NCBI RefSeq assembly: GCF_037042905.1
Contig: NC_087251.1
Span: 21,826,001-21,890,000, forward strand
Source of the DNA: Lytechinus pictus
Taxonomy: Eukaryota
Reading direction: 5' to 3'
Length of the DNA: 64,000 nt
Of this stretch, positions 1 to 62,409 are shown one piece after another. Position 1 is the first letter of the stretch, and the number at the start of each line of letters is the position of its first letter. A program made the position numbers and the translations under genes. The notes beneath the pieces are model-generated. The model was not told the origin of the DNA, searched no databases, and worked only from the letters and a program-made list of their open reading frames with translations.

Positions 1-3000
1 TATTACTTTAAATTGCATCTTTTGGTGAGCTAGTTTCTCAAATGTCATTCTGTTTTCAAGGCTTCTTCCCCAGGAAAAATGATTTTTCCGCACACAAATA
101 AAATATAATTAATACCCTTCACCGCATAGATGAAATGAAATTTTAATGTCAAGGAAACACTGTCAGATTTCGAATTTATTTGCAGTTGATGGGATATAAA
201 AAGAAGTTAAATCCACCTATGGCACAAGATAAAAGAATTTTAATGTCAAATGACATTTGACTTTTGCCTTTGTGCCAGAGTAATGTTTGGAATAGAACCA
301 AAGGAGATGTATTGAACATTTCCAGCTGCATATCAAGGGTGCCCATAAAGCTGTTTTAGAAATAGTAATTGAAGTTTAATAATGGGGAATGCATGCTCGA
401 GATACAGCGATTAAGCTCTCAACCCTATTGTTAAGACATTAATTGGAGAGGTCGGTGAAATCTGGAATACCAGCTTGTGTTTGATGGGGAAATCTCAATA
501 TCATGTGAATTACTTTTCGCAAGTCTGGCAAGACTCTTCATATGTGGAAAACAAATTGTATGTTTCTTTTCATTAAATTATAGATATTTTTGGAATTGCG
601 GATTCAATGTTATAGTAATGCAGTGGAAAAGTCTGGATTATGGCATATTTTCAGCTTTATCAAAAGTACTACTCTACAATGGCACAGTGGAATTGAGTAG
701 AAAAAAATTATATTTTTTTAAGGAGCACATTTGTTATTCCTTTTTAATACTGACATAAAAGCAATGTAGAAATGCCTTGCCTCTCATATTATATTGTATT
801 ATTATTTATTTTCTGATTTTATTATACTATGATTTATATTATACTGGGTAAAACATGAAGATAATGCACTTTTACTATGTTCATATATGCCAGTATGTAA
901 AGGGAATAATTAGTTAACTTTTTTCTCAATCCCTGTTCATATATTGTCAAAGTGTTGTGATTTAGAGAGCAATATTTCATTATTCTTATTCGAATGTATT
1001 TAGGAAATGGTTTCATGTAACTGGAACATATTTAACTTATCATAGTGAGTTTATATTACAGTGTCCTTTCCAGTGTCCTGTTAGTAAAATATTCACCCCA
1101 AATTATAATATGGAGCAAGCAATGATCAAATTTCACCAAAACATGAATACCCATGAAATTTCTGCAATAGTTGTGAATAGGCAGCATATGTCAAAAGGTT
1201 TGAATCAATGATACAGTTTTTATAGGAAGTTATAGCATTCACACCAGCAAAGTATTAGGTGTATTTTCTAATTTGACAAGTGTGAATGCTGTTATTAAGT
1301 AGGATACAAAGCTACGCTAAAAGACCTCGAATAAAAAGCCAGGAAGAAGCCCTGTCCCTCTTCCTTTTCATTTATAAATTGGGTCATCCAAACATTACTG
1401 GCTAAGCCTTTATAATGATGCTCTACTTTCAGAAGACTAGACTTCATATACAGCAATCGATTTACAGAATTAGCCCATTGCCATTTTAGCCTAGTTTTCA
1501 GGAGTAGTGGCCAGACCTAGAATGATGTCAAAAAGTGGTCATGCCATCAGGGTCCTGTTTCATGTAACTTGATATTGATTACAAGTGCAAAATCTGTATC
1601 ACTCTTAACCAACCAAAAGGCTGTCTCCAGGATTCTGTTATTGCATCAAGTTTTGATGAAATGGAGACAATATGGATGATTCTGGTTTGAACTTGGGATG
1701 TATGATCTTCATTCTTTCTTGAAAATATCTTTTATTGGAACTAAATTGGTGATGTCATGAGGAATTGAATACTTCTGTAGTCTTGATGTGCTTCTGTTGT
1801 GCCTAGTAACCATGACTATGTTGAAATCTTTTATATTCTTTCCTTGGGTGGTATTCATTGGTTCTTGACTTATGCCATTCATTCTGGAAAATGTTCTCTT
1901 TTTCGCGATGGTTTAAATGTTCATTTTCATGTTTTTAAGATGACAAATAGTGTATAAGCTCAGTTCATTTTTCCCTGAACAGATTATGCAGTGATGTATT
2001 TTTTTCTAAATTATTCAAAAAAGAATGTTAACACCAGAGCCATTATTAGAGATAATTCGGCCAACCCAGTTTCAATGGGTTACCATCATGACGCATAATG
2101 CTTTGTTAGGCAAGCCCAATACAAATTTGTTTTGCCTTGTTGGTATATTGAAACTGGGTTGGCCGCACTCTCTCTATTTATGGCTCTGGTTTACACCAAT
2201 TTCTGTTAATGTTTGATGAGCAAAAGGATATTACCTGAATAGTTGCAAACTCATTCTGCGATTGATTTGATACAGTTTTGGGCACGATTTACCAAAGGGA
2301 ATTCCCTCGTTTACCAGACCACATTCAATGTACAGTTCTCGTTATCTTCTAGTTCATTGACTGTGTTAGTTGTGGGCCTACATCATGTAGTGTCAAGCTT
2401 ATTGAATGTTCAATTAGGCCCAGAGTCTGAACTCTAATAAGTCATGGTCGATGTTGCTTGAGCGTGTCTTCAAATCAGGTGTATTCTATTTGCATCTTCA
2501 TATTCCATTCATTTGAAAAGCTTTGTATAATTCTATAGACATCTTTATTGTCCCTTCCCCCTCAAGGTGATTTCCTAAGATGCAAGATTGCTACAGTGAT
2601 GGTGATTCATTCATCAGTTTCATCAACTTGGAAATATACTCGGTCAAATTACTTTTGTGTCCCAAATTGAAATGGCCATAATGCTTGAAATTCAATAAGG
2701 TATGCCTGATGTGAAATTCATATACTGTAAATATGTAGATTTTCTTAAAGGAATTGAACAAGCAAAAAAAGGCCTCTCGTCTTATGTTGGTAATGTGTCA
2801 ATGATATGACACTTCCGTTGCGCCATATCTCTGTTTTCAATAAAACTTCCCATACACGGATATTTGATATTTTTAGGACAATATTGAAAGTAGTGTATCT
2901 CCATATTCTCATTTGTGTGAGCTGCAAACGATGAGGCTAATAAGTCCGGGCCCTGTGTCATAAAACTCTGTATAAATGTCAAGTTACTAGTTACTATTAT

Positions 3001-3625
3001 AAACTACTGATCTGGTTTTATTTGATTGGCTGAGAGGGTGTTTGTCATTGAATACTAGCATTTGATATTGATAGGTTTACAAAATGGTTCTTATCCATTA
3101 TGTGCCTAGAGCGTGGGCTAAATTCACAGAGCATTTCCTTCGATACGCAGCCATCTTTGTGCACTTTTCATGAAGTGCCTTTACAGTGATTTTACTGATT
3201 ACTTTTGCCTCATGCCAATCAGATGCCCTGATTTCAGTAGCTTATAACAGTTGCCAGTGAAACACACTCCCAAAATGCTCCATGGAACATTACTCCCTTG
3301 ATGAGGGGTGTTTGTTTGATATCAGTGAATCCTCAGGTGAATCTTATTAATCCCTTTGATTTAGCATGAGCTTTCAAGTGCTTGTTTGGCCTGTGGGTAT
3401 ATCCACTCTACTGAGTGGATTTGGCGCATTACAAATCACTTGTATTATTAGTATTATTATTATTATTATTTGTGATTGATATTATTTGTTAGCTGTAAAC
3501 TCATTCTTTTTTTACCAATTGTTCTTTTTAAAATGTTTCCCATTGATATTATTTTCAAAATATAGGTGCCAGTTTTCTAAATAAAACCATCATGGTATAT
3601 GAATTAACACATTGCTTTTGTGACT
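1..3625 (+). other. Probable 3' UTR and poly(A) site of an unseen plus-strand gene upstream of the window
   Basis: T/TGT-rich, UTR-like plus-strand composition with no credible ORF. AATAAA at 3580-3585 is followed about 25 nt later by GU-rich cattgcttttgtgact. Further AATAAA at 1330-1335 and 2839-2844. Composition judged by eye. Confidence 0.4.
3380..3470 (+). mobile_element. SINE/L2-type retroposon 3' tail
   Basis: GGATTTGGCGCATTACAAATCACTTG followed by (TAT)n at 3443-3470. Confidence 0.5.
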
Positions 3626-7315: not shown

Positions 7316-7845
7316 GAGAAAACTCTCTATTAAGTGGTAAGAGAAAGAATGCCTTATCCAAAAAAATGTCAAAATGTCATCTCCGTTCTTGGGAAATTCT
7401 GATATTGTTCATAAACAATACCCTATACCCGATGAAATAAAGACCCTTTCATGAGAATCAATGGCTAGAATAAAACATCAGCCTTATAAAATCTGGGAGT
7501 TATTACCGTATATTCCCAGCATTGAGGAGAACTTTACAATTAAAGACACAATCCTCACTCGCGCACAAGAAGTTTGGTCCAGATAAATACTTCCGTATTC
7601 GTTCTTGTTAGAATGATCATTGGTAGCTAAATATACCTGGGGAATATTGATCAATGATCCAGCCATTTCTTTGATTAAGCTGGCTTTTATGAAAATTTGA
7701 TAGATCATTGATTGTAAGAAGAGAGCTCTCTGGCATTGACAGCATCTCCATTGTGAGTGAGACGAGCGTCTCCCAATGTATAGCTTTATCACTAGTACGA
7801 AATATATTTTGTACTATTTATTTTTTCCATTAGAGCATGGAGTGA

Positions 7846-8025
7846 AGGCCTGGTCACACCAAAAACTCTTTGAGGCTTCATTCTGGTGTAATGTTGTACT
7901 ATTGGTTGGTAGTCTCAATGATGAACTCACACTAAACTCACACCATGTTCTGCATGATAACAGATCTTTTGTGTTTGTATGGTTTGGGACACACTGGCCT
8001 AACCCGGTTTGGTGCGATGAGGCCT
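7846..8025. mobile_element. Degenerate PIF/Harbinger-type MITE
   Basis: Ends AGGCCTGGTCACACC / GGTGCGATGAGGCCT, with TNA flanks (TGA, TAA). Confidence 0.55.
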
Positions 8026-8028
8026 TAA

Positions 8029-8430
8029 GACCCCGTTCTCATTACAGTCCTAAAACTAGTTAAGTGGAAACCAGTTTAGTGGGAACTAGTTTATTGTGTA
8101 ATAGAAATGCTTGTGATTTGGATTTCAAGACCTCTCTGCCTCGTTAAACTACTTTAAGTGTAGATGAGGACACAGCCGTTCTTCGGGAATTGATTCCCGC
8201 ACATGTTTGGTGCGCTACTCCACATATGGTGTGTAGAACGTCTACAATGCGGTTTCAAACATCACCCCACTGAGAGCATTCCTGTAGCAACAATACTGCT
8301 TTACTCAAAGTAGTTTTGTAAACCATTTAGGGGTGATCAGATGGGAATGCTAGCAAAGCAATCTTCCAAACTGGTTTCCTCAACCAGTTTCCACTAAGCT
8401 AGTTTTAGAAAATGTAATGAGAATGGGGTC
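8029..8430. mobile_element. PIF/Harbinger-type MITE (~400 bp)
   Basis: TIRs GACCCCGTTCTCATTACA / TGTAATGAGAATGGGGTC, subterminal AAACTAGTT/AACCAGTTT repeats, flanks TAA / TTA, and an inverted second copy at ~57830-58134. Confidence 0.85.
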
Positions 8431-9174
8431 TTACACTTTAAGACAGTAGAAAACTACAGCTATGGAGTAAGAATGGCTTATTGCAACATCACATCACAAT
8501 GTAAATGGCAAGGTCAATATTGTACTGCTCTGTCATTATGACAGGGATATTTAAACTTCTTTCTCACTTTCAGACACATCCATGAATATACAAAATAAAA
8601 CTAATTTAATGTTTTAGAAATGAACTACCAGTGTGTGCTTAGATGTAAGGTTCCAAAATGTAAAAATGAAAATTAAAGATATCAGGCATAGAGCAACTCT
8701 GTATTTACATTACGTTGATATGTTACTTTTTTATACAAATTTTACAAAGCAAATCACATATTGTAAATTTCAGAAATGTGCAATACATAGTAGGTTCGTG
8801 CTTAGACATCTAACTAGAAACAAAGTTGGGAAAAATTATAGCCAATAACCTCTATTCATAAAGAAATCAATCTACACTTTAAAGTACATCTTAAGATGTG
8901 ATGAAATCATAGAGGGGCATTGATAGTTGCGTGAAGAGTAAACGGCAGAGCGTAACTTGAAGTAGATGAAGGAAAAGGGGATTGACAATTAACACCCCAA
9001 GAAATCAACTAAATGTGACAGTCTCGTGGAAGAAGGTGAAAGTGTTTCCCAGCGGTGCAAACTATCAAAAATTGACCGATTGAATGGAAATTTAAAAAAT
9101 ATTAAAGCATGTATATTATCATCTGCTTGTTTTTTGTGAGGGATGGATGAAGTCTTGAAGTTCTCAAAAATGAT

Positions 9175-9489
9175 TTATTTACGTCCACTGTGAAGGTACA
9201 TGTGGCAGGCCTTGTATGCTCGTGCCTGGCTTGGGTCTCGTCCTGCACCGTTGCAACCAGAGATGCAGTCCGTCGTTTGCATATGGGTGTTCTTAGAGCA
9301 AGCTAAACAGGTGAAGATGCAAGATTTCTGCATGAGGGCGCTTCGCTTTACCGTCTGGTCTTCCTGGTAGTTGAGGACAGGCTCCATCAGGTCCATTGCA
9401 TCTTCATCAAAGAAAGGGGCAGGGGCGGCTGGGATGAGTTCTGCTGTGAAGAGGAGCAGGCCCATGACAACCAGGATGAGGGAATTCAT
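9175..9489 (-). CDS. EH1: Eclosion hormone-type (EH-like) neuropeptide precursor, 104 aa; probable orthologue of sea urchin Spnp11 / echinoderm EH1
   Basis: Seen: hydrophobic signal peptide (about aa 1-21), acidic spacer, K48-R49 convertase site, mature region S50-S101 with C57-x3-C61-x2-C64-x10-C75-x3-C79-x15-C95, terminal G102-R103-K104 amidation/cleavage signal, and a GC-richer coding-like island in AT-rich DNA. Knowledge: insect EH has C-x3-C-x2-C-x12-C-x3-C-x10-C. The match to Spnp11 and the EH1 (versus EH2/Spnp15) label are from memory, not a search. Confidence 0.9.
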   Translation of the reverse strand: MNSLILVVMGLLLFTAELIPAAPAPFFDEDAMDLMEPVLNYQEDQTVKRSALMQKSCIFTCLACSKNTHMQTTDCISGCNGAGRDPSQARAYKACHMYLHSGRK

Positions 9490-9513
9490 CTGGTAGGAAC
9501 AAAAGAAAAATGA
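9490..9513 (-). other. 3' splice acceptor directly abutting the EH-like start codon
   Basis: Minus strand reads tcatttttcttttgttcctaccAG|ATG AAT: a polypyrimidine tract and CAG immediately before the ATG. Confidence 0.8.
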
Positions 9514-12500
9514 TGGAAATATCTCTGGTTATCATCATTGATGTTGGAACATAAGTGTTTTTATCTTTGCAATTGACAGCATTGAGGCTTGTTCAGATAT
9601 GGCAGTCTTGTGTTTGTTAGATTTTTATCGTACAAGCCAACAGAATATGAAGTGGTAAAGAATTGGAGCCATGGCAGGAGATATTCTTGTTGTAACACAG
9701 CTCAACAAAGCTGTTGACCAATCAAATCATGCAAAATATCATATCATGAGGGAGTGAGTTCAACCATAAAACCATGTTGGACAAAGATCTTTTTTACTTG
9801 GGATGTATTTATGTAATCTAATTTATTTAATTAAATTTATTTGAATATTATTGTTTCATTAAGAGTTAACCCTAATCCTGTCTACATCCAAAGGAGCCTA
9901 TGATATTATTTTTTTAATCTGAACATCTGATACTATTCTGCTATTCTGCTGAAGTTATCCACAGTTTTCTTACTAATATTTCTCAGCCCTTTTTTTCTCA
10001 CCCGAATTATGAAAGTAGTTTGATATACTTTTTAAACCTACATACACCCCATATGTTACATATGGTGAGGTGTGTCTAAGAATATTTGAAGATCACATTG
10101 GATTGGATGATTTTCATATGAAAGGCATCAAGTAATTCTACAACAATTGTGTCTATATTTTAAAGGTGAAGTGGAATGACACAAATGCCTCCTTTTTCTC
10201 AACATTTCCTTGAAAGCCAGTGAACACTTTTTGCGAGAGTGATCACAAATTTCCTTGTTGACCATAGTAGATTGCGAGACAAATGAATACCCTCTAGCGA
10301 TTATTTCAATCCGCAATAATGAACCTATTTAGTATTGCTAAAGAACTTTCTAAAGAAATAAGTTTTTAATATTTATACTCGTTCATCTCTGTCTTCACTC
10401 TTCTTACTCAATCTTGATTGTGAAGTTCATTTTAGGCAGTTCACAATATCTATTTTGTTGTTTGTGTGGGGACGGAGGGGGGGGGGGTGATGGAATGATC
10501 AGTTCAATATTAGTAGTTCTCTTACCTTTAAGGGATTCTTTTTCGTTTGCTTTCTCAAATTGGATTATTGTCTGTTCCTGGGTGTGGTTACTTGCCAATG
10601 ATATCTAATACAGAAGAGAAAATAGAATGCAGAAATTTAAATATTGATTTCACCATAAAAATATATATGGATTTCATCAAGTAATAACTAACCAGTTCTT
10701 CAAAAGAATTGTTGCTTAAAAAACTAATTTAAATGATGAAAGATATTAACAAAATTATTGTTAAAAGCATAAGTTCAACCCCACCAGAAAGGTCTTGCGA
10801 TCTCATTGTTGATCATAACTCAGGGTTGTTTGAAATTCATAAACAGATCTCTGCATGACATCACACCAGTTAAATTGGACGATATCAAGACGATTCAGCA
10901 GAGCCTCATTTCAGCGTAGGAGACGCGATTTCTAGACCAATTTGTAGCGCTTAATGATGCCGATCATATTTAATAACTACATGTACGTGCATCTATGGAG
11001 TAGGAAGGCTTGCATATATCATATCAAAATCCGATTACAAATCATCAGCAAATATTCCTTGTTGAAAAAGGTTTGTCGATCATCATTTCCTCATGATGCA
11101 AAAAAGCTTGCTTTCGTGACTTCTCGCAACTTTCAATACTACGTCTCCTTCTGTAATCCATGTATTGGGTTTTCTAGTTAATTTCATGTTGAGAGATGAA
11201 TAGTATCGCTTGCATTGTGTTCTTGAATGAAATTTATGCCATTTTTCTAAAGGAACTAATGACATGTGAAACCTTGCTGTTCGAGTTTGCTCAGATCTCA
11301 TTTTGGGGTGCTTTTTTCATGAAATGCCATGCTTGTTTTGTAAGAATAATAGATACATGAATGATTTCATTTATTATTGAAATAAAGTATGATCATCTAT
11401 CAATCTTTAAGATCATCTTCAAATTTGTAAGTCTAATAAGCTGCTTCCCCTGTAATATTTTGCCTTTTCAAGAATGAGTTTTGTCACTAAAACTTTTAAA
11501 GGTGATCTTCAACTTTTACAGGTGATGATAGGTGATGATAAACCTTAATGTACATCTACTGCATAACAGTGTATAACGTGTATAGTAAAAATCAATCATA
11601 ATTTCATATGCTCTTTATTATTTTCATGATTTCTATTCAATGGAAGGTGGAGTTTATTTGTTATTTTTAAAGAGACATTGAAAGGAATTATTAAACAAGA
11701 GCCTCCTCATTTCAATCCTTTTCATAGTAGATTGTTTTTTAAAATTCTCATCATGACAAGTGTAAATCAATCTCTTCCTACCCCGTCTCTTGTCCTCTGT
11801 TTGTTCTGCAACACATCTGTGCATTTTGCCTCCAGTCTAATGGGTTAGGATCGCTAACAAAGTGTAACTTAATTCCAACTTATGTTGCATGTTCTCATCT
11901 ACATTACTTTCTGGATTTACATCGGCAGGCCGCATACTCATAATGCTGTAGCATAGTAATACTAGCAGACCATGTCGAGGAGAACATATCTCTTGTGATT
12001 GATGCGGGACATTCACCGCGAGAGACAAAATCAAATTTTGGGCCCATTTTCCAAACTGATTCACATTAGATGAGAAAATGTGTATTTTTAGATGTACTGT
12101 TCATTTTCTGGTCTCAAATCGTGCATTAGCAATACTTTTTCATATCAGGCCATACTTAATGCCGGACTCCCTAAATTTCCCACTAAGAAACAAATCCACA
12201 ACTCTTTATGAAAGCACCGACAATGGCACTTAACCTCGTCTCACCATTGCATTTTATTGAGTGGAAAAGCCCTGTTTATTTTTCAAGTCTTTGAAGTTGC
12301 AAAATCATCAGAATAGGTCAAAGTGGGTTGCTCTTATTTTGTTTTTAACCTAGATTGTACAGTGTAGCATCATTAGATGCCAGCCAATAATGTCACAGAT
12401 TGATAAATTGCTCAATATTGCAGAGGTATTGGGCAGCCAAAGGTCTTATTTACTAAAAAGGCACTAAAACAAGCTTTTATATTATAAGTTTCATGTAAAT

Positions 12501-15500
12501 TGTCATTTGATTCATGACAACTAAAGAAAAAATATGTTTTCCCATTATATTCTTATTGTGTACTTGTATTTGGTATTTCCAGGTTAAAATAACTGCCTTT
12601 TTACTTGTGCATTTTTCTGTTGTATTAGTTTCCTTGACCCCTATCGAAAAATTAAAAAAATATGCAGGATATAAATGATTTTAAAATTTCAGTAATAAGG
12701 GAAGAAACATAATGATAAAGGGTATTAAAAAAACTGCAACTACATAACTGTAATATGTGATATCAGATTTAAGATAATTTCTTTTATTATCATTGGAATG
12801 TCTTTAGATTAGTGTCCATATGTCCACATCTCTTATAAAGAAGCACTCGTTAGGCTCGTATTTTAATGAATATCATCATTTTACTGATAATACAGAAGCT
12901 CTGAATCACGTATCTGAGTCTTAGAAGTCGATATCAGAAACCACATTATTTTGAATATATGGGGGTAACAGAGTACACCTACATTTAATACAGAACTCAG
13001 TCCAATTACTTAAGAGATTGGTAAGATATTACAAGGAGGTACTAAAGCATTTCTGCTGAAGGCATTGACCATAAACAAGTTTTAATCATATGATGGAGCT
13101 AAAGTACACGTTGGATAGAAAGAAGCGCAGGTGGATGTTTTTGCGTCATTTGTTCATATCTTCTTTCTTTTTTTGTTTTTTGTTTTTCTTTTCCTCAATT
13201 AGTTCTCAAGTAAAGAAAATATAAAAGGGTCCTCATAATAGGCATGTTGTGAGGGATTCAGAGGAAACCTTAGGATTAATCTATCATATGGCTCAGTATG
13301 TTAAGCCTTTGAGGTACAAGGTAACTTTTAGTGTAGGGTTGATCTTCCAGAAGGTCCATACATGGACCTTACATTATTCCTTAGAGTTCCTTCATTAAAC
13401 TTAGATGAATTAGAGATATCAGTACTCTCTTGGGGGCCTTTCTATCTAGTCATAACAACATTACCAAACGCTTTCAACACCTTACTTTCCAAAGGTTCAA
13501 ACAATCAAAGGCCAGCCTCAGCTGTGTTTATAGTGTCTGAGCACATGTCGAGCGTGAAATCAGGCAGTGTCGGCAGTGATGAGCCGTGGTCACTCTTGCA
13601 TTTCTTATTCTGTTATACTTTGTTTATATGATTGATCACGTGCATACATGACAGTTTATGATACTTCTGTAGCCAATCCAGACACGCTGTTAGTTCACAT
13701 GCATGGAGTAAGTGATATCTATGCTGTCAAAAGTATTGAGTTGTTTTTAATCATAGTCTTATTCCTGATAAACAGTATAGCTTTGTAGATCATGGCATTT
13801 GATTAGCAAAGAGCAAAACTGTTGCAGAAATTTAGCATTTGTTGTTGCCAATTGTTCTTTAACAGTTCCTTGGCATATTACAATTCCAACGTGTTGAGGA
13901 TTATACATGACAAGATGATAAGGGAGGCAGGGTGTGGGAATTGATCAGGTGGGATTAAGAAAGAAAATAAAAAATATGAAACAATGAAAGCAAAGGAAAA
14001 GGAAAGGAAAATGTAAGGAAGAAAGAATATAGAAAATTAAAATAAGACTCAGCTCAGTATATTCACATCAAGAGTAGATGGGGTGAATGAGTATAAGGGT
14101 TTGTCCAAAAGTGGGACAGAAATGAGAGATACACAAGATGGGAGAATTTATTGGAAGATGAATATGAATATTTCTCACTCATAATGAGTGAGAAATATGA
14201 AAAGAGGGGGGGGGGGGCAAACTAAACAGGGGAGTGATAGTGGAGTTAACAGGAAGAATCCTTGAGCGTTGTAAACATGTGAGATGATTACATTTGAAAT
14301 TCTACAGGAGAGTGAGCTGCGACTTTTATTTTTAATTACATAAACATTTTTCATCCTTACAAAGAGTATTCTGATATTGACCAAAAGAATCAAAAGAAGC
14401 TTGCTGCCATCGTTCACATTAAAAAAACTTCCCATCATGATAAAGTCATTAATGTGAGCAGTTTGGTAAGGCTACATGACGTCAAGCAAATGTTTTTACA
14501 AGGTTTTCTCATTGCATCCCTAAACTTTTTCCTCCATTGACTGCTAAAGTACCAAGTTTAAAAATCACCTTCCATATCGGGTGCTAATCTAGCAGAAAAT
14601 ATCCACACTGGGGGTTTGTTAATCGCTGTGCCTCAACACACGAGGGATAAGATAACGACCCATGTAAAACACATTCCTCCGCTTGCCCACTTTACTTTAT
14701 TTCCTTGGAGGGGTGATGTTCACACTGCTCTCCCAGTTTGAACGTTGCTGGTGTAATCAGATTAGGCCTTCCCTTTGCATAGTCATGGGGCCAGACACAC
14801 TTCCATAATTCTGAAATTTTGTCGGTTAGGGAGAGGACTTTCCCTAAAGTGCCTTGCTTCTGTGACCCACTACCAAGCCTAATGAAGATGAAGTTAATGA
14901 AACAAAAACACGAGATGGAGCGGGTGGGTTGCCATGCAAGACGAGGCATGGAAAGGATGTTTTCACAAAATGCATCATGAGCAAATAGATGTGATGTTGC
15001 ACTTTAGTGATTTGGAATCACCTCATTCATTTCCCTTTGGCGTGGAGTCTCTTTGGTGTGTTTCATTTATAATTCATGCAGTTTAGGAGAAACCCACTGA
15101 ACAATAGTTTCTGGATATTGAACATAGCCGATGCAACTGGAATGACAGTGCTTAGTTCAATGGAAAATTTGTCAGGCTTTGCCTTTTGATATTTGAATGA
15201 ATGAATCTTTTGAGAGGCGTGATAATTACACAATCATAACCCATGTACAAGGGATTTTTAAGCCAAAAATTTATACCCTACATAGTTGGTCAGAACACAG
15301 AATGATATAAAATCTAACATCAAAATAAAGCTAAGTAAAATTAAAGAACATATGATGTGCCGGAACATGTCAGTGTTCATCCTAATATCCATGGGCGTGA
15401 AATTCGTTTCCTATCAGATTAACATATCCATTTAATCTCAATATAAACAACTACAAACTTCAAGGATTCAATTTCAAGGAATCTGCAATTCAGCAGTGTC

Positions 15501-18500
15501 AATTACTCAGGAGCGGTTACAGAACCTTTCCCCAAATTCACCGAAATACCTAATTTTTCCCTGAGGTGCAAGGAATGTAGGAAGTAAGGCAAATTATTCA
15601 GCTGAATCCTTGAGAAACTTGTAGCATGCAACTCCTGAATACAATCCAGTCAGTCTTGTAATGTAAACACATGAACTTGATGAATGTAAACACATTACAA
15701 GACCGTACAGCACAAGCAGGGCTTTAGGTCTCAGTTAAAGATATTGATTAACACAATATGATTAAGTCTTGTTTTAAAAAAATCCTGCCTTTTGATTGTA
15801 TTTCGTATTGTTCATATGGTTTTTAAAAAGCATCTAGAAAACAGTCTGTGCATACACTTTCAGCTTCCTTTGACTGAAAAGTCACCATTTAATTTCTCTG
15901 ATGGGGACAGTAATTCTAGATCATAATGTAGTAAAATTTGGATGGAATTTTTTCCAGGGCTTCAGGTTTACAACATATCTATTTGGTAACAATCGGGACA
16001 TTAATGCTCAGATATAAGTCAAATGAATGTTAAACAATACATTTAACTTTGTGCAGAACAGTTCCTTGACCGAACCTGTTAATGAAAATATTTATGGACA
16101 TAGGCTTTCTTTCTTGCTCAATTGAGCTTGATGAATTGTTGTTTCCTGCATCAAAGTTACATTGTGCGGTGAATTTATTTAAAAAAAAAGCATAAAGACA
16201 TGGTTTATTATTCTTCCTTGGTCTGTGGAGCTTAATGATTTTTAGTTTCCCATGTCCATGCCCCATTCCTTGTCACTGCAGTGTAAGTGAATGAGTGATC
16301 AAGCAATCAAGCAACAGTTTTACCATCAAATATTCATTGTACTCTTTAACACCTTACAGGGAAATGACAAAAAGGGTGCAAGAAATGGTTTTTGAATGGG
16401 GTTTTAAGGATGACACTAATGCTGTCTCACAAGTTTTTGACTTGACTTTCTGACTTGATGAGTAGTGTGGTATCAACTAAACACTTTCATGATCCTGTTG
16501 TATGGTAGAGTGAAATAAATGAAAGAAAAATAAGCAGCAGGTCCACCTAAGATTTATTATATCAATATTACAGTTGATGATATTAATATTTCAACAGTGT
16601 TGATGACAACATTTATTCAACATATTTTCCCCATTTTTTTCTTTTATTTTGGAGTGTGTTGTGAAAACAAGCAGAATTTAACAACTGTAAACAAAGGATA
16701 TTTAAAATAATTATAACTACTTGGAAGAAAAAAGCTAAGAATATGTAAAGTGTTTCTGACAGTAGTTATTAATACTCTGCTCTGTGAATTTACTATAGAA
16801 AATATATTACAATCAAGACCCAGACTGTGAACTCATTAAAATCTTGCCTTTAATGCATTAATATCATTGGGTCAACAAGACACCAGCTTAAATTGTAGTA
16901 GATGCCTGTCATCCGCTTGTCTTGTGGACATACCTGTTCATAAACTTACTCTTAAATTGCGTTAATGTGTATTTTCCCAATTTTACAAAGTTTTTATTGG
17001 GAACACAGCTTTTCTTTTGGTATAGTTTTCATTTGCTCAGAATTTAATCATTTGAGCAAATAATATTGCCTTACAGTAAAACTCTCCGGGGCATTTGAAA
17101 ATCTCTAATCTTCTTTATTAGAATTTTTTGCCAATAGTTAGTTTATGTTTATACTTGAAAAATAAGGAAACATTATTGACAAAAACAGTAATGTGTATGA
17201 TACACCGTATATTATTTTTATCCGGAGGATTGATTGAATATTGATTAGTGGAAAAATTTAATGTAGAGATCATGAATGTCACCTTCTCTTGGTATGTTTG
17301 TGGTAATATAAGAAATAGTCATTGTAGTTTAATTTTAAAGCCATACACCAGGGAATAATTTTCCTGGTATCGCATCACAATTTGCTCCACATTTTTGAAA
17401 GACTGCTATGCATTGAGTCTTTTGTATAGCATATTTTTACATAGGACTGTACATTACTTAGTTGAAAGCTTTTCTCTTATGACCAAAAATGCTATTCAAA
17501 TTTGTAAAATGTATACACTGTAGTAAACTTATATTATTCTACTGTTTTGTTAATTTCTATCTTGTCAGGCTAAGAGGACAAAAAAAAAACTTTCAAAGAG
17601 CATTTACAAGGCGGGCTTGCTTGTTTAAGTTGTTTGCTTCACAAGGCTTGCGAGCTTAAAATAACAATGTAAACAAGACCTGCAATTTTTCAGTATGGAA
17701 ATGATTTTACTTGTATGTTTTATTCGGGTCAGGGGACCTTTCTTGGTTGATGAAATATTCATAATGTGTTTTCGTACTAACCCGTCCACAGAAATACTCG
17801 TAAATTAGTTGACTTAAAATTACTACAAATCTTTTTCGGACCCCCCCCCCCTGAATACCTGATAATTCATATCACACATCAACACCTGCCTGGAGCAAAT
17901 AAAACTCTTGTAGTTATGATCCAGCTACAAGACTTTTATATTCCTAAACATAGGATATGCATTCTTCTTGCCTCACATTGAAAAAGCCCTTTTATTTTTC
18001 TTTCTCACTCCACAAATTCCTGTGATTTTTGAAAAATCCTAGAGAAAGATCTCATCTTGTGAAAAATACGTAGTAATAATTTGTGGGTAATTTCTTTTAC
18101 AGATATTTTGTTTTCACACAAAAACTGATTTTTTTTATAATGATAGTATTCAATTCAGGTATCATACAAGGAGTGCATTGACAATCCTTGTATACTGTCT
18201 TTATGTTTTTAAGGAGGACTAGCTTTGCCAATATCTAGGTCATTACTGTTTTTATTTGTGAACCGTACACGCCTGTAGCAAGTCTTTGTTTAATTACTTC
18301 TCTAATGTGTTCAACCATCTCTTTTCATACTTCTTATTTATCCTTTATGTTAATACCAAGGGGATTGATGGCAGACGGATAACTTTTTTTCTGCACTTTT
18401 ATTTAATCAATTCACAGTATGAGCTGCAAAGTTTGGTAGTTTTTGTCCTAATGTACTTGGGGAAATCAGCCCAGACAGATCAAAAGCATGAAATGTTCAA

Positions 18501-20069
18501 ACTGCATAAACTAAATTTCTTATAGTGGTCATGATAGTTTTGAAAACATGTTTGTGAATGCTTTCATGTGTCATACGTTCTTCCTCACTTTCTCTTATTT
18601 TACCAGCTGGCTAAGCAAGATTTGTTTTATCTTTACTAACTGTAATGAATTTCTTTTAACAGAAAGACTTGATTTTCTAAATAAAAATCAAAGGAGTGAC
18701 TAAAATTCACCACAAGTAACATTTAATTGGTGGTTTTCAATCATTCAACAAAAAGATAATCTAGGAATTCAATCTTGTGATGAAATCTGCTCAACCTCCA
18801 AACACTGATTTGATGGTTGGCTAGTTCCATTATTGGTTTTGAAAAAAAAATCAAAATATGTGAGTAAAATCTAGAATGATATATGGTAAAGCATCCTCAG
18901 ATATTGCACTTTATCAGGTCTGGTGTAATATCTTCAGTTTAGAAGCAAAAGGATGTATTCACCATTGATGCCCTTACACCATGACAAAGTTCTTAGATAT
19001 TCATTCACAAAATAAGTTTAGGGGGTATTTCAATACGTGTAACATGTAAATGTGATTTGAATTGTTACTCAAATTGCAAATATTCAAGTCAATTCATAAT
19101 AATGTAGTTAAGAATGATTTCATTACTATGTTAGAATGGAATCATCTTAGTTAGGTATGAATAAACTAAATGCAGAGATGATTCATAAAGGATTTAGTTT
19201 GACTAAACTTTTATATAAAAAAAGACGATTTGCTCAAGAATATTACGTGTATTACAACGTAGTTGTTGCACTTTAATAAAAAAAGGCTGTTATCATTCAA
19301 TGAATGTGTCTTGCCAGCATTCTGTTTAGCGGTTAATGGGTGGATCAGTAGATAGATTCTGGAAGGGTAAATGGAAAGATATCCTTTATCATCAATTCCT
19401 TGACAATCATCTTTATGTTGTCGATCTCATAAATGGTATCGTGTTAAACAGCACTTAAAATGAGCCCAATTCCAGAATGACTTTCACTATTTGCATTATA
19501 TTGGAAACTGATCAGTGACCTTACATCACTCATAACTATGTGAGATTCATTTCCATTGTCTCTCAGTTTGATTCACTTCATTGAAATCCAGAGCTTCATC
19601 ACTCCAGGTTATTAAGTAGCAATTGATTAGAAAATTGCAATCCACATGTATGCTGATCTCTTGCAATCAATCTGAACAGTTGAATGCAAAAGTAGTCACA
19701 TAATTGCTTGAAAGGAAGAACTAAAAAGTGATTTGTGCCCCATTTCATTATTTTTTTCTGTCTGTTTGATGGATGAAGGAGATGTGAGCTTTGTTTGCAA
19801 GGTTCGAATTTCAGATTAACCGGTTAATGATTAGTGTATTGCTGCTGAATGCCTCTAAAGACACAATGGGAGTCACAGAATTCAGTTATAGTTAATGGTT
19901 CAAGATCAGATCTCAGCTACAGTCACATATATCATCAGCTCAAATTAGCCACTATAATTCAAGCCAATATTAAGCCCTTAGTACTGATCCCCATTGTAAG
20001 ACATATAGATGCTTGCAATATGCTAACTTACCAACAAAGCTCATATTTTCTAAGTGTCGGGTAAAAATA

Positions 20070-20280
20070 CACAGTAAAAAAATAGAACGCTGTTTAAGCC
20101 AGTCACTCTAACTACAAATTGTTTAAACTTTTTGAAGTTGCGTGAACTATTTTAACAACTCGTTTGAAACGTTTAAACAAATCGTTCAAAACTAAAAACA
20201 ACTTGTTCAGAACTTTAAGCGGTAGTTGTTGGAGTGACTAGCTTAAACAACTCGCTTGAAATTTAAACAGCGTTTGTAAA
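20070..20280. mobile_element. Palindromic non-autonomous DNA transposon starting CACAGTAAAAA (EnSpm-like)
   Basis: Inverted AACGCTGTTTAA(GCCAGTCACTC) versus GAGTGACTAGCTTAAAC...TTAAACAGCGTT, internal TTTAAAC repeats, and a second copy at 4778-4950. Confidence 0.6.
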
Positions 20281-23176
20281 TAATTTGCCACTGATATTGC
20301 ATAGTCATCTTTTGACTATTATTAATTTAATACTTAGATAAAGAATTATTGACTATAAGTTTGCTCTAAAGCTTCTTATAATTTGCACATGAAACATTAA
20401 CATAGAGTGATGTGGCTTTTGCAGTTTCCCAAATTCCCCTCTTTTCTGAAAGTAGGGCATTTTGCTCATGACCACCTGGACAACAGGTTGCTTGACACAT
20501 TTTAACAAAGCCCTTCTTCTTTCTGGGCATGCTGTCATGTGCAAATTTGATGATCATGGAAGTTATCGTGTCTTGAAATCTTTGAAACTGTTTACTCCTA
20601 TTGATGTAATCTTGGTGTGAAGTTGGATACGATCATGTATATCATTTTACTCATTGTTGCCTGATTCATATCATACAAACTACACATGCCCACCTCTTCA
20701 AAAGGGCTTTTGCACTTTCATCATGTACTTTTAGTCATAAAAATGGAGAGAATAGTGCAATTTATAGACATGTTTAGAATGTCCTTTCCTTGTGAAAAAA
20801 AAATCTGTGGAGTTACCTGTCTCTTTCTGTCCTTTGTTTGTTTGTTTTTTAGATGGAATGGTGAGTAAAAACTCTTAATGATCAAAGCAATCGATGGAAA
20901 CATATTTAGTTTCACCTGCCACTTGAAGTCAAAATTGAAGGGTTTATAACAGTTTGTTTTTCACCTTCTGCATACATTATATATATTCGGGTATGTAGTG
21001 AATGTTTGTTTTCTCATTGTATGCTGAAAGAGGTTTTAGAATTTTTCAAATAAAATGTAGATTTGCAATGCAATAGTCAGAATACTATTATAGCACTGAC
21101 AAAGATATCAAATTCCCCTTTTTACCTTATAAGACAATTCTTTTAAACATTGTGGTAACATAATTGCACTGATCAATCTAATACTCCTTGTGCATTATAC
21201 TACAAATTTGATAAAGCTCATCTTTCATATAGGGGAATATACCATGGACTTACTAATGGCTTTGGATATAAATTTTATGATTATTTAATTTGTTTGAGTA
21301 GCTCTGTCACAAAGCCATTTGATATGATTCTTTTAGATGTAGTTCAAATGCTGTTGGAGTATAGAAGTCCATTGCTTAGCAATAGCACGTATGCAAGCAC
21401 TAAAGCTTATTTTATTGCCTATTGCTTGTAGAGACATAAGCTTTCTGATTTGTTTAATTAGCAGTTCAAGCATGTAGTGGGAGTACAGTTGTATTTCTCA
21501 AAAAGGTTCTTGTTTTGAGAATGTCCTTTCCAATGTAAAGTAAATTACGGTCAAACTTCAGCTTTAAAGAGGGTATCTTTAGTAGCTATTTGTGAAGAAT
21601 TGATTGTGCCATGGCAAACCATTAATAGCCCGGCATACAAGTAGGATTCCTGCCGCGTGGTGAAATATGACCCTAAGAAAATGTTTGGCAGATCAGATAT
21701 ACAATCCCAGAATATATCCCTCTGCAGAATAGGACAAATGCTTGTGGATAGCGCTTGCCTTGTTTCCTGCCAAACTACCAAGAGTATATCGAATGAATAT
21801 TGAGGCTTCTCGTTCTAAATCACAGTCATGCATGACTCTACCATTACCAATCCACTGGGTATGGGAATTACGCTTGCTGTTTGTCATAATTTTCAGGAAG
21901 AGGAATTGGGGGGTGGGTGGGGGATATCTTAAATTGGTAGGGAAGGAATTTTTTAATACAGACCTTAAGTGCCCTCCTCTAAAATGCACTAAGTGGCTTG
22001 ATGTGATATTGCAACAAGTGCATCAAAGGTGAAATTTCTGTGATTGCTTCTTCTCCAAGAAAAAAACGATAGAAGATGGAAAGAGATGATGAAAGGCGTA
22101 ACCTTGGCTCATGGGTAATGGCATGTAACATTTGGAGAGTGTTTCCGACTTTGATAGTAGATTTCATATACGATTGCTGCCAGGCTGCAGAATTGGGTTT
22201 AAACTACTTCTTCAGCATACTTGATAATCATGTATACAACAAGAAATGTAGTCATGAAGGTTTACTGTACTTTTGGACATTTCACGGTCTAAATTTGGAT
22301 ACAGGTTTTCAAATCAGACATGAAATTGTCCAGATACTTGGAAGAATTACATGTTTATGATTCAGTCCTTTGGTCATTATTCATTCCAGTTAATCAAATT
22401 GAATTATTGGTCTTACTAGGTGCATATTATAAATTGCACGTATAGAAACTCTTGACTTTTACTGATTTTGGATAGCACTTTTGATTCCCTTTTAATGTAT
22501 ATAAGGAAGACTATCAAACAATAGTACTTATTGTTGATTCACAGTTTGATTTGTACTTTTATATTGCTAACTTGAATTGTTATCATATTTTCAATTATCT
22601 TAATAAGTTATATCATGTCCCTAATGTCACAGGTTAGTCCCTTTTTTTACACATAGTGACCCATAAATCAATGTGTAGTTTCTCTCAGCCAGTGAACTGA
22701 CAAGATTTCAGGGGGGTATATTAACTGGGGGCATACCATTGATTGTGGTGTATAGTCCTACATAGTCCTACTTTGTTTTTTCACTATGAGTTACTCCATT
22801 GCAGCAGGGATTGTAGACCCCAATTAGTCCATTTTATCATGTTGAACTTAAACGTTTGGTTGTGTGAGACTGTGAGATGGTATTATGGTGTGCTTTTACA
22901 AGCTCTATACACATAAATTAAGGTCTTGAAGCTAAGGATTTAAATAGACCCTAGTTGTATCCATGATTGCATGATAAAAACATGATGCATTTCAAAGATG
23001 TCTTGATTCACTTCAGAAAAAAAATGAAGAAGAAAAGACACAGTAAAGCTGCTTGAAGTGTTATGACGATATTGCAGACTTAAATTGCACAACTGTATCA
23101 ACTTTACTTAATTTGTGTGGGAGACTATTCCAGAGTTTTGACACAGCATGTGTGAAATACCTTTTTACCACATGTA

Positions 23177-23857
23177 GAAAATGGTCAACACGAATTGGAA
23201 GCCTTGAGTGAAACCCTTAAAATGCTTGATGTTGGTTCTTTGTAAAGGAGTGATATTACAACAGATTAATCACACTTTAATTACATAGGTGAGGATGATC
23301 CTAAAATGTATTCAGGTGCATCATCATTGTTGTGAAGCTTAGAGTATAATTTGTCATACATCTATTTGTTAGGTTTTTTCCAGTCATTTAGAAGGAAAAA
23401 AATGGTTAACACGAATTGGAAGCCTTGAGTGAAACCCTTAAAATGCTTGATGTTGGTTCTTGATTTTTAAATGAGTGATATTACAACAAATTAATCACAC
23501 TTTAAGTATAATATAGGTGGGGATGATTCTACAATGTATTCAGGTGCATCATCACTGTTGTGAAGCTTAGAGTATTATTTGTCATACATCTATTTGTTAG
23601 GGTTTTTTCAGTCATTTTAGAAGGAAAAAAAGGGTTAAAATGAATTGGAAGCCTTGAGTGAAACCCTTAAAATGCTTGATGTTGGTTCTTGATTTTTAAA
23701 TGAGTGACATTACAACAAATTAATCACACTTTAATTATATATGTGGGGATGATTCTAAAATGTATTCAGGTGCATCATTATTGTTGTGAAGCTTAGAGTA
23801 TAATTTGTCATACATCTATTTGTTAGGTTTTTTCAGTCATTTAGAAGGGGAAAAAAG
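23177..23857. repeat. Tandem triplication, ~220-230-bp unit x 3
   Basis: GAATTGGAAGCCTTGAGTGAAACCCTTAAAATGCTTGATGTTGGTTCTT is identical at 23192, 23413 and 23642, and the rest of each unit is near-identical. Confidence 0.95.
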
Positions 23858-26800
23858 ATCAAATTATACCATGATGAATTATTTGGGGATAAATATAATG
23901 ATTTTGTAATGATTTAAAATGATCACTTCATGCCTTTAACCCGACATTTCACTTCATACTTCAGTTCCATGTTTTTGAGATGGCTCTTTTCAGCCTTTAC
24001 CTTCTCATTTTTGAGTGATATGATAATAACAAGCATGTCATGAATTATTGATTAAATTCTATGCAACACAATAACATAATAAGTAATCTATATTCCTACT
24101 GATCATTGTGTCAACTAATATGATTAGTTGCGGTGGATTTTATGCATTTATGACAAACATCCATTAGTGTAGGCTATATGGGAATGGAATAGCCATGAGA
24201 TCTCCATCATGTCTTTTTAATATCAAACTCTAACTGAATGATGATGAGTTATATTATGTCAGATCATAAAGAGGTTTATTGGAAAATAATAAATCAAATT
24301 TATCCCTAAAAGGATAACTGTTTTATATTTCTATTAAATGAATAATTCATGCTTTTGAGCTTATAGTGTTTTATGATGAACTAAAAATACAATAAACCTG
24401 AAAAACACTTGAAAATACATTTCATTATTTATTTGAATAACCAAAGCATAACACATTTTGATAATTTGATAATTAAAAAAAACAGGATTCATAAGGAATA
24501 CAATGCAATGCATTAATTGGATAACAAATAATTGAAATTAAAAATTGTAGAAAAAATGAGCTCACAGCAGAAGATTCTAAGATACTATACTATCTTTTAA
24601 GTGCTTTTTCTAAGCCATTCATTGCAATTGAACAGTTTCCTACATATCTGAGAAGGATTCCCTTCCTTTCTTCTGCCTTTGCTTGAGTAGAAGAAGATGA
24701 TAACATCCTAAAGCTTTTCTTCCTCTTATCTGTAATGGATTTTAGGATACTTAGAATATCATTTCGAAGTAAGTGGGAAAAATAATCTGGTGGATTGAAT
24801 TTTTGTGATGAGTTGAATTGTTTCATTCAAGATTTCACCAATACCCAGCTGGGATTTTGAAACAGTTATTATTTTCCATTTTCTGTATTTATTTGAGGAA
24901 GACGAAGAAATTGTAAAAGAGGGGTACTACTAAGCAGGGAGATTTTCTTATTCCTATGTGAAATCAATGAGGAAATGTATATACATGTATATTATGGGGG
25001 AGATTTTACCTAGGGGGCACCAAGATGGGCTTTTACTATCCTGATTTCATGCATCTTCATTGATACCCCCACCCCTAAAAGTGTTGAAATTTCGGACATT
25101 ATTCTATCTTTTTTAAATTAATCTAGGGTAATAAATAGCAATTATTACCGAGAGTGACTAGAAGATTATATTCACAGATAAGTCTCTCCATGTTTCTACC
25201 AACTTGAAAATAACCCCTTTGTTTTTCTTACAATTCCAAGTATAATTGGAACATAATTAAACTATCAGGAGGCCTCAGTATTTGGAACTTTCCCTTAAAA
25301 AATCATATTCATGGCATGTTCAAGTTTTACAAACTTTTCATTTTCAAAGGAAAGGGGTAAGACCCCTAATAGTCTTTGATCCTTAGATAGGCTTTTGACC
25401 ATAGACCATTATCATGTATACAGATCTACACATAAACATCTGTCAAGTCAGAATCACCCAATTAGGGATCATCATTGTACATGTACTTCATCTGTAATTT
25501 TTAAAATCAAATTCTAACTTTTGCAACATCAAAGGTAACCTATTTCATTGATCTCTCTAGAGATACAGTATGTATGAGTATTTTGCCATGTTCTCTTTTT
25601 TGGGATGAGAACCTCTTTTACTATGTTTACAATATTATGCTAGGTTATCAAAACCAGTTTCTGAAAATTATTTTGAAAGACAGTTCAAAGTGAAGCCTCC
25701 GTACTAGCCTAAAGAAGTCAGAGGCATGAACATTTATCAAAGGCACTTGAAAGTACTTATGAAAGTTGCTTTGGAAGTTCTGAGTGATGGACTATTTAGA
25801 GGTGGATGCGTGTAAATCTCCTTACTCTGTCTTAGTGGAAGTCATCACCTGGGATTGGTTTTATGTGATATTACATGCACAGATTGATGGCACCACGTGA
25901 GGTCTTGGCAGGTTTGGTTCAGAACCTGAACCCTAACATTCATTTCAATCCGCTCATTCACTTTGATTTTTCATCATTTCTGCTCTGCTACCCATGTGTT
26001 TCTGTCTGTCAGTCTGTTAGCTTATTCCTAAACTGCATCGATGAAGCAACCGAGCATCAATGGTAATTTGCAGTAAAAGAAATACCAGAATGTGTGGGCG
26101 GGGCATCTGCACCGTGGATATCATAATTTCATCAATAGTTAAGCTGTGAAGTGACAAATTTGCGGCAGCGAGCGGAATCTTTGTGAGAAACGAACTTGTT
26201 CTTCTGAATATTGCATGATTTACACTTGGCGGAAATCATTTTCATCATCAATCTTTGTCAATAGAAACAGCTTGGATTTCATTGGCAAGAGAGTAAAAGA
26301 GGTCACACCTACATGAAATCATGCAGTAATTGAGTGATAACATACTTTTGTTATCTTCTGAGAAGAGCAAACTATCGCAAAATACAGATTGATTGGAACT
26401 CATGACATGTCCACCATGGGAAAGAATGATGTACTTTGCATTGCAGGCGTTCAAAAAATTCACTCCCTACAGACTTGCAACTTAATTAAAATTCTTGTAA
26501 GAAAGAATCCAGGAAAGAAGCAGAAACTCCAAACACCTTGTCTATACATTCTATTATCACGACTGCCCCCATCACCAGACAAGAAGTCATGTTTTATTTG
26601 CCAAGTAGCCCCCTCTATCAATATTATCCCAATGCAGACCTGGTAAACATCAGGCTTGTAAGGACCTACAGTGAAGGAGACCACATTCACAGTTGTGTCT
26701 CTCTTTATCTCGAGGGAGAAGCAGAATCATGATGTCCGTCTTCAATCCTAGCATGACTTTTGAAAGGAAAACAGCCGACGACCTAATTTGAAGATGGCAG

Positions 26801-27134
26801 GACAAATTTGCGGAGGTTTAGTAGTATTTTCTCATAATGCCTAATACAAACATCATCCTGAGAATTCTCATATCCTCTTCTTACAGGTTGCGGAGATGTA
26901 GTCCAAAGAAAAAAGAAGAAGTCATTTTGCTTCTTGGATAAAAAGTGTGTCATGTCTCTGACTAGACTTGTAATGAATATATGTTTGTGCTTCATATTGC
27001 TTTTAAGAGAATTGATTAAATATATCAAAATGTCGTGCTACTTTGATCACATATTTTCTCAGTAAACATGTGTTCATCTAAATTTCCTGTTGAGAGGTTT
27101 CGTAGCAGGATTTCATAATTTAAGTCCAAATTTA

Positions 27135-27290
27135 AGTCCACACTACTTGGACTCTAGTACTAGTTGGTCTACTAGTTGGTCTTGTCCCACACAGTCTGAT
27201 ACTCACACCATGGTAGTTAAATCCATTTGGTCTACTACTACACATATATACTCTCATTAATTACCATTTGGTCCAATCATCACTCCAATA
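27135..27290. repeat. Degenerate (CCA)TTTGGTCTA/GTTGGTCT short-period repeat relic; a similar relic lies at ~33420-33560
   Basis: TAGTTGGTCT twice, CCATTTGGTCTA and CCATTTGGTCCA within 150 bp. Confidence 0.45.
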
Positions 27291-45500: not shown

Positions 45501-45675
45501 CTTTATCAAGCAGGTGAGATGTTGAACTTGGATGATACGAGGCTTTGTCAGCCGAGATTCCTCTCCGTGTCGGTATCCGTTAAGTTGCTCTCGTGTCAGG
45601 ATGATAAAAAATGCTGCCTACCAACGTTCACTCTCTTCTTTTGAAGCTTGCAAAAAAGCTGTTTTTCTTCAGTCA
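45501..45675 (-). other. Candidate non-coding first exon (5' UTR) of the EH-like gene
   Basis: Consensus donor AAG|GTAAGA on the minus strand at 45501/45500. The 175 nt from 45501 to 45675 contain no minus-strand ATG and are CpG-richer than the flanks. Splicing to 9489 gives ...GATAAAG|ATG with A at -3. It sits directly downstream of a promoter-like block. Linkage to the CDS is inference. Confidence 0.5.
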
Positions 45676-45860
45676 CATGCCACCAGTCACTCAGAGAAAC
45701 AATCAGCCAATCGGGTGAAGTCATGACCACTTCAGACCACGCCTACCCTCTTAAAAGTGAGGAAGGATGTGTGTGTGTAAGAGAGAGAGGGGAGAGAGAG
45801 AAAGAGAGAGGGAGGAGAGTGATCAGACAGGAAGCTGTGTGATGGAGTTGTAAAATGACG
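45676..45860 (-). promoter_or_regulatory. Candidate core/proximal promoter of the EH-like gene
   Basis: NF-Y-type box CAGCCAATCG (CCAAT at 45707-45711), a weak TATA-like TTTTAAG (minus, 45756-45750) and a (GT)n(GA)n tract at 45768-45819, adjacent to the candidate exon 1. Confidence 0.4.
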
Positions 45861-48883: not shown

Positions 48884-49790
48884 AGGCGGTGCTGCACCAT
48901 CCCGAGTTTGCTCAATCTCGAGATTTTAGCCCGATCGGCCCACTTCGCGATTAATCTCGAGATTCAAGAAACCCCGTCTGCACCATCGCAAGACAGCGAT
49001 TCCTGCTCGAGCGAGGCAACAAACCCGATATTCCGAGCATGCGCACTTTCGGATCTTGGAGTTTCAACGGCCCGCGCTTTTGAATAACTTCCCGCGATAT
49101 GCAAGCAATGTACTCCTTTCACTAGCACTTTCGCCGGTGTTATGCAACAATCCTCTCAGCTCAGCGAGTGAAGAAGTGATGTATTCTTCGTTAAATATGA
49201 TGGCGGAGTAGGAGGCAACGACAGAGAGAGAGAGGGGGAGAGAAGGAGGAAAGAAATGCTATTTGCTCACATTTTGCGAAGGAATAAGACGACACTGCTG
49301 TCAGTGTTGTTATTGAATATGACCATCGTCGATGAGCACCTCCCCCTTCGGTCTGGTCTCTCCCAAAATCCATTCACTGGTGGGACACCATCGTTGCTGA
49401 TTAGGCAACTGATGAACGCTATTCGCATACGTATAAAGTTGACTTTCGCACGTGTTTATGTTTTGACCAAGGCGGAAGTGGAACGCGAATTGCATTATGG
49501 ACTGACGTCATGAATAAATTACCCCGAGTCCAATCTCGAGTGCGTCTGCACCTACGAATTAGCGGGATAATTCGTAAAATAGCGCGCTATTTTGCAAATA
49601 AACCCGAGTTGACTTGGGATTGCAATCTCGAGATTAATCCTACAAACTAGCGCGATAATTGCGTCTCCACTGCAAACTATCTCAAGATTTTTCAGATCGG
49701 GATAATTTGCCGGATCAGAAATAGCGCGCTAATTTGAAAACTCGGGATGGTGCAGACTAATTTGAAAACTCGGGATGGTGCAGACGGCCC
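48884..49790 (+). mobile_element. CpG-rich PIF/Harbinger internal-deletion derivative (~900 bp) with a transposase 5' remnant
   Basis: TIR CTGCACCATCCCGAGTTT / AAACTCGGGATGGTGCAGACGGCCC, repeated AATCTCGAG motifs, and an internal frame HRR*APPPSVWSLPKSIHWWDTIVAD at ~49324-49401. Confidence 0.8.
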
Positions 49791-57699: not shown

Positions 57700-57830
57700 G
57701 CCTGTTTCACGAAGAGTTACAACTATAGTAACTTTGCCATTATGTCCTGTACCATGTAAATTTTGATTGTAAATGCCTGCTGAGCCCTGTTACCATGGAA
57801 GTTGCCATAATTGCAAAGTTACAACAGTTA
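57700..57830. mobile_element. Palindromic MITE (CAG|GGCCTGTTTCA start) lacking its right terminus
   Basis: GTAACTTTGC.ATTATG versus CATAATTGCAAAGTTAC inverted pair. Similar left ends occur at ~1548 and ~2948. Confidence 0.55.
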
Positions 57831-62377: not shown

Positions 62378-62409
62378 CTGTGCATATGAAAGAAAACGTA
62401 ATGCTTGAA

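Follow-up and report, generated by a model that had tools for sequence, protein, structure and literature searches.

What is an eclosion-hormone-like peptide doing in Lytechinus pictus, an animal that does not moult, and how far does the eclosion hormone (EH) label hold for the gene that encodes it? The question is raised by an open reading frame in the window, by which we mean the whole stretch of 64,000 nucleotides that was analysed (NC_087251.1, positions 21,826,001 to 21,890,000). An earlier note had read this frame as the gene of an EH-type neuropeptide and had found its presence in a non-moulting animal surprising. The surprise does not stand, as such peptides are already published: Spnp11 and Spnp15 were renamed echinoderm EH1 and EH2 in 2017 (PMC5627052), the EH ligands have been extended to cnidarians, acoels, hemichordates and lophotrochozoans (PMC6660194), and an EH fragment has been described from a crinoid (PMC9793003). 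The statement in the same note that EH-like precursors had been reported in echinoderms was correct, and the reports reach other non-moulting phyla too (PMC5627052; PMC6660194). The EH family in echinoderms has thus been in print since 2016-2017, and the gene discussed here is very probably an orthologue of a published family and not a discovery. The details that are new are its gene model, its amidation signal and its linked paralogue.

The precursor and its spliced gene

The open reading frame of the 104-residue precursor occupies positions 9175-9489 of the window on the minus strand and was confirmed by the list of open reading frames and the translation. Its N-terminus is hydrophobic at residues 4-19 and forms a helix at residues 3-15 of the structure model, and a signal peptide of approximately residues 1-21 (9427-9489) is predicted by eye from the sequence. 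It is followed by an acidic spacer with seven D/E (residues 22-47, 9349-9426), which has the same layout as in Arnp11, and by the convertase site K48-R49 (9343-9348). The predicted mature peptide, S50-S101, comprises 52 residues with six cysteines and three predicted helices (9187-9342), and the precursor ends with G102-R103-K104 and the stop codon (9175-9186), a predicted amidation signal. All these parts lie on the minus strand. The cysteines stand at positions 57, 61, 64, 75, 79 and 95, which corresponds to the spacing 3-2-10-3-15, and the C-terminal peptide counts 55 residues from the KR site. Since the precursor terminates in G-R-K, the established processing rules predict a 52-residue amide. 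The earlier note had described a complete precursor with a KR site, six cysteines and inter-motif spacers of 10 and 15 residues, all of which is confirmed (the signal peptide by eye). Its extent of the gene was right for the coding frame; the terminal G-R-K amidation signal and two upstream exons had been missed.

A homologue in another assembly is 74% identical, signal peptide and spacer included; none of the six cysteines is lost in it, and the KR site, the G-R at the end and a splice acceptor just before the ATG are retained as well. The homologous sequences P0002-P0006 end in G-R, G-R-K or G-R-R. The precursor protein is already present in NCBI nr, and a search of 1.84 billion proteins with the precursor returned only itself. 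The codon pattern of five cysteines was found a single time in the window, where 0.01 would be expected, and was matched in 1 of 100 shuffles, a count that shows rarity only, because the pattern was derived from the same gene.

According to the transcript contigs the gene has three exons, of which the first two are non-coding, and its two introns measure 34.9 and 1.0 kb. Exon 1 lies at about 45501-45600 on the minus strand, with an approximate 5' end and the donor AAAG/GTAAGA (the slash marks the exon/intron boundary). Positions 1-79 of a contig from run X5 (476 nt, depth 30.2) align with window positions 45579-45501, positions 1-100 of an X2 contig align with 45600-45501, and one piece of an X1 contig (depth 55.6) likewise ends at 45501. 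Intron 1 (34,896 bases, GT..AG, 10605-45500, minus strand) is deduced from contig pieces in two separate alignments, where the contigs were recognised as identical by their length or depth; the arithmetic of the X5 contig is exact, with 79 + 79 nt adding up to the 158 nt found in front of the coding exon. Exon 2 (79 nt, 10526-10604, minus strand) is delimited by the X1 joint between 9489 and 10526. It contains no ATG and an in-frame stop lies upstream of the start codon, therefore M1 is the start. Intron 2 (1036 bases, GTAAGA..CCTACCAG, 9490-10525, minus strand) ends directly before the ATG: the 1545-nt X1 contig (contig 4) matches 8123-9489 without a single difference and passes directly from 9489 to 10526 at GT..AG borders, the alignment skipping 1036 bases with the ends CT..AC, and a contig of X5, which comes from a related organism, joins 9491 to 10545 with 19 other letters. 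Contigs of X1 and X5, two of the four runs aligned to 7500-27400, thus cover the open reading frame and skip intron 2, and they must originate from RNA because they contain spliced joints. Transcription, on which the earlier note had made its reading depend, is borne out by these contigs. The 3' untranslated region extends over at least 1.05 kb (8123-9174, minus strand, contig 4 of X1); its true end is not fixed, and the nearest AATAAA motifs are at 8095 and 7822. With about 6 in 100 raw RNA reads taken from each of the runs X21 and X22 (tissue unknown), the depth over 8828-9491 was zero; therefore, expression of the gene is restricted or low.

Several further features were observed around the gene. 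A separate transcript contig covers 7274-8059 in both X1 (797 nt) and X5 (822 nt), with an extrapolated left end, and may represent either the remaining 3' untranslated region or another transcript. Repeat-derived stretches at 8030-8390, 10205-10285, 17350-17510, 48900-49760, 57790-58000 and 60200-63750 stand out by a high depth of reads or contigs and by numerous loose ends, and one of them breaks the contigs at the 3' untranslated region near 8060-8120. Upstream of exon 1, at 45620-45760 of the minus strand, an ATTGG (reverse CCAAT) box, two TGACT motifs and a GC-box-like stretch can be recognised by eye, and no clear TATA box is seen there. Run X15 yielded a 2051-nt contig of low depth at 45824-47873, also upstream of exon 1, which may be DNA or pre-mRNA, given the other long low-depth pieces of this run.

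Probable membership in echinoderm EH1 and a linked paralogue

To judge from cysteine spacing and precursor layout, the gene very probably encodes a sea urchin EH1 precursor of the Spnp11 type. The spacing 3-2-10-3-15 is identical to that of Ophiuroidea EH1 from O. victoriae and EH1.1 from A. filiformis in the supplements of PMC5627052, where, counted by eye, the spacers are 10-11/15-17 in five of five ophiuroid EH1 sequences and 11/9 in five of five ophiuroid EH2 sequences. As the 10/15 spacers fall within the range of the five ophiuroid EH1 sequences, the seemingly odd values are an EH1 signature, and the EH2 values of 11 and 9 are not found here. The residues K55-L99 align with O. victoriae EH1 without a gap, and 17 of these 45 positions are identical, 11 of them non-cysteine (PMC5627052 supplements; a comparison by eye that carries no E-value). 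The layout described for EH1 in PMC4772807 is present as well: a signal peptide (by eye), an acidic spacer, a dibasic site and a C-terminal six-cysteine peptide.

We consider the gene very probably an orthologue of Spnp11. The Spn11 peptide has 54 residues (PMC4772807), and the peptide counted from the KR site has 55 residues here, 54 in the homologous alleles P0005/P0006 and 62 in the S. purpuratus orthologue of the paralogue described below; therefore, Spn11 fits the window gene and not the paralogue. Since Spnp11 was compared by its description only, the one-to-one orthology rests on this length and on the ophiuroid match.

The paralogue, a second EH1-type precursor gene, is located at C7:22002512-22007518 on the same (minus) strand, 167 kb upstream. 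Its coding parts (2512-2916 and 7516-7518 of locus L021, minus strand) are separated by a 4.6-kb intron directly after the ATG. The encoded protein is 96% identical to Lytechinus variegatus LOC121418834 and its S. purpuratus orthologue is LOC105444880 (XP_011677983), both of which are annotated only as 'uncharacterized'. It shares 30% identity over 57 residues with the window protein (pairwise E 1e-6), and the S. purpuratus copy matches the window protein at E 2e-9. The paralogue differs from the window gene in its spacing of 3-2-13-3-16, a longer spacer, a W before Cys6 and the lack of an amidation signal. Its ATG is found on the upstream exon, whereas in the window gene the intron precedes the ATG, and both introns fall in the same alignment column at the start codon in an alignment of the signal peptides, which is weak. 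The simplest reading is that the two EH1-type genes arose by local duplication. One EH1 is named for S. purpuratus in the available part of PMC5627052, thus the pair may be unrecorded.

When the two mature peptides were searched against the genome at the protein level, each found its own gene and no other, and this search is blind to diverged paralogues; neither did the EH1 mature peptides locate EH2 in it, which is no evidence of absence. A scan of 59 loci for five-cysteine patterns with spacers of 10-13, blind to genes split by introns, detected both EH1 genes and, in addition, a single false match; the latter spans a stop and lies antisense to another gene, and was rejected. An open frame of 791 residues with a PPPPY motif and no Pfam match lies at C7:22170858-22173233 (858-3233 of locus L058, plus strand). 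By its motifs we take it to resemble the linker exon of the PTPN14/PTPN21 (pez) phosphatase, and it is a possible synteny marker.

Arthropod eclosion hormone and other six-cysteine families

The EH label of the earlier note is sound as far as it means the echinoderm EH1 (Spnp11) type. The analysis did not recover homology to insect EH independently; the name is based on the positions of the cysteines and on the clustering in the literature, and is not firm. Six cysteines and the motifs C-x3-C-x2-C and C-x3-C are common to arthropod EH and the window protein, the EH cysteine positions are reported as conserved in the echinoderm EH-like precursors (PMC5627052), and EH1 and EH2 cluster with arthropod EH in a CLANS analysis (PMC5627052 section 2.1.1). 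The match to the Pfam Eclosion family (PF04736), by which the earlier note would have had the protein checked, failed to appear in any of six aligned family members at E<=10, with a profile that consists of arthropod sequences (Atlas clusters) and may not reach echinoderms. The same profile gave eight sub-cut-off matches in the genome, none at either EH1 gene, and these loci (L002-L009) were rejected, as neither motif scan nor list of open reading frames offered a credible precursor. The sole Pfam match of the precursor, NCD3G (15.9 bits against a cut-off of 38.9), was rejected as cysteine-pattern noise, and so was a weak Cdd1 match among the Pfam scans, which included the mature part, the homologues and the paralogue. 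Three homology searches returned only sea-urchin-type sequences and no arthropod EH, and PDB sequence searches gave no match. In the Atlas feature search, Eclosion clusters were first and third of the top three with a score of 0.77, a weak lead that lies within the range of shuffled proteins and is tied with a spider-toxin cluster at 0.77. With the mature peptide alone the Atlas search gave no usable match, and its structure rows were rejected as unrelated proteins.

In insect EH the inter-motif spacers are 12 and 10. The 11/9 of EH2 is nearer to these values than the 10/15 of EH1, and one might argue that EH2 is the only true EH, and EH1 a sister branch within a wider helical six-cysteine family that includes CHH, ITP and MIH; on this view EH1 would remain a secreted hormone, but its receptor cyclase might be another one. 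We regard this as unlikely, although it is the likeliest of the alternatives. The AlphaFold2 model, built on a six-sequence alignment, has helices at 44-68, 72-79 and 86-100, with pLDDT of 70-79 over residues 51-100 and a mean of 59. A fold search with it against 48,161 solved chains gave none at Z 5 and a top Z of 4.2, and no EH chain is among the 50 matches listed. Four small helical disulfide peptides are among these 50, at Z 3.3-3.8: Ta1a (Z 3.8, rmsd 2.3, 43 residues aligned, 21% identity), Ssm6a (Z 3.7, rmsd 2.2, 39 aligned), k-Ssm1a (Z 3.6, rmsd 3.1, 45 aligned), all three of which we take to derive from ITP/CHH, and the moult-inhibiting hormone MIH (Z 3.3, rmsd 3.4, 52 aligned). However, unrelated helical proteins score higher than any of the four, and the likeness may reflect a common arrangement only. 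Similarly, weaker BLAST links to ITP are reported in PMC5627052, but according to the same source the ITP cysteine positions do not match the echinoderm EH-like precursors.

It could also be supposed that EH1 corresponds in echinoderms to the N-terminal domain with six cysteines that opioid precursors carry, and that it is released there as a separate peptide; we consider this improbable. The opioid-precursor domain has the layout C-x3-C-x2-C ... C-x3-C ... W-x-x-C, and it shares with EH1 an aromatic residue three positions before Cys6. However, Pfam Opiods_neuropep (PF01160) matched none of the six family members, neither EH1 gene is among its 11 weak sub-cut-off matches in the genome (loci examined by pattern scan alone), and the cysteine domain of EH1 stands C-terminally, after the KR site and with nothing behind it. 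Furthermore, of NKAIN, ATP6V1H and FAM110, which we take to be genes linked to the vertebrate opioid loci, none is found on C7 (the first two are on C1, FAM110 is on C17), although three markers make a small test. The PF01160 and linkage results lower the opioid idea. Little credit can likewise be given to the broader notion that EH1 is misnamed and represents a surviving free-standing helical six-cysteine module from which insect EH, the CHH/ITP hormones and the first domain of the opioid precursors of vertebrates also arose. Sea urchins would then keep this module in duplicate on a single chromosome, with only one of the two copies amidated, and it would have an orphan receptor of its own. 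If this were true, deorphanising EH1 would provide a function for a domain to which none has been assigned in vertebrates. That the product is secreted for defence or as a venom-type peptide, instead of being a neurohormone, is highly improbable: spider-toxin clusters at 0.76-0.77 in the Atlas list and the helical toxins in the fold list point that way, but every toxin score is below the tools' own bars, the gene is single copy by protein search, the 74% identity to the homologue includes signal and spacer, and the gapless match is to ophiuroid EH1, a published neuropeptide precursor (PMC5627052).

Proposed hormone and comparison with known systems

We have a spliced, transcribed and conserved open reading frame that matches published EH1. 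Our preferred reading, with a probability of roughly 0.6, is that the EH1 precursor is secreted, cut at the KR site and likely amidated, and gives a neurohormone, likely with three disulfides, that acts through cGMP made by a guanylyl cyclase of the EH-receptor clade. Following established precursor processing, signal peptidase would remove the signal and the precursor would be secreted, a PC2-type convertase would cut at K48-R49, and carboxypeptidase E would trim R-K before PAM amidates the 52-residue peptide, in whose helical structure three disulfides would form. By analogy with insect EH, the peptide would then raise cGMP by activating a membrane guanylyl cyclase that belongs to the EH-receptor clade. 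We lean slightly towards this cyclase mechanism when it is taken by itself: EH-receptor-like guanylyl cyclases are described in ophiuroids (PMC5627052) and an EH receptor is reported in ambulacrarians (PMC6660194). A gene of the EH-receptor clade was not identified among 78 ANF_receptor matches in the genome, and the HNOBA search singled out none.

As for the role, our best guess, a tentative one, is that the peptide may time a life-stage transition or a stereotyped motor programme; the earlier note had thought of hatching, metamorphosis or spawning as possible settings. A 2021 study reportedly dealt with ecdysis-related neuropeptides at life-cycle transitions. Sp-EH2 is highest at the pluteus stage according to PMC6209648, the main text of which does not contain the term EH1. 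The earlier note held that neither the function nor the receptor is established in echinoderms, and it agrees with the literature searched (mostly open-access), in which no work on the function or the receptor of echinoderm EH1 turned up. A knock-out or a receptor assay in this sea urchin genus, which is used in the laboratory, can build on the complete gene model, the predicted amide and the linked paralogue, and the possible redundancy of the two EH1 genes is to be allowed for.

Several known systems were compared with the window protein. In arthropod EH (PF04736) the spacers are 12/10 against 10/15 here, no Pfam match connects the two, and the receptor and role of this hormone are demonstrated in insects only. 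Echinoderm EH2 (Spnp15 type) has the same six-cysteine frame and the same type of precursor, but in five of five ophiuroid sequences it shows 11/9 spacers and no aromatic residue three positions before Cys6 (PMC5627052). Arnp11, the EH1 of Asterias rubens (Arub EH1, KT601734), is by description a 103-residue precursor with a 21-residue signal (PMC4772807); it resembles the window precursor in its acidic spacer, its dibasic site (45/46 in Arnp11) and its six cysteines, and differs in its peptide of 57 residues instead of 55. The closest likeness is to Spnp11 of S. purpuratus (Spur EH1) and to the ophiuroid EH1/EH1.1 (O. victoriae MF155236 or MF155237; PMC5627052), with which the window protein has the precursor layout and, as far as the O. 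victoriae sequence goes, the spacing 3-2-10-3-15 in common, the mature length being 54 residues in Spnp11 by description and 54-55 in the window gene and the two homologous alleles. In contrast to the window protein with its terminal G-R-K, none of the five ophiuroid EH1 sequences in PMC5627052 carries this amidation signal, and the W that all five have three residues before Cys6 is replaced by Y92 in the Lytechinus pictus protein.
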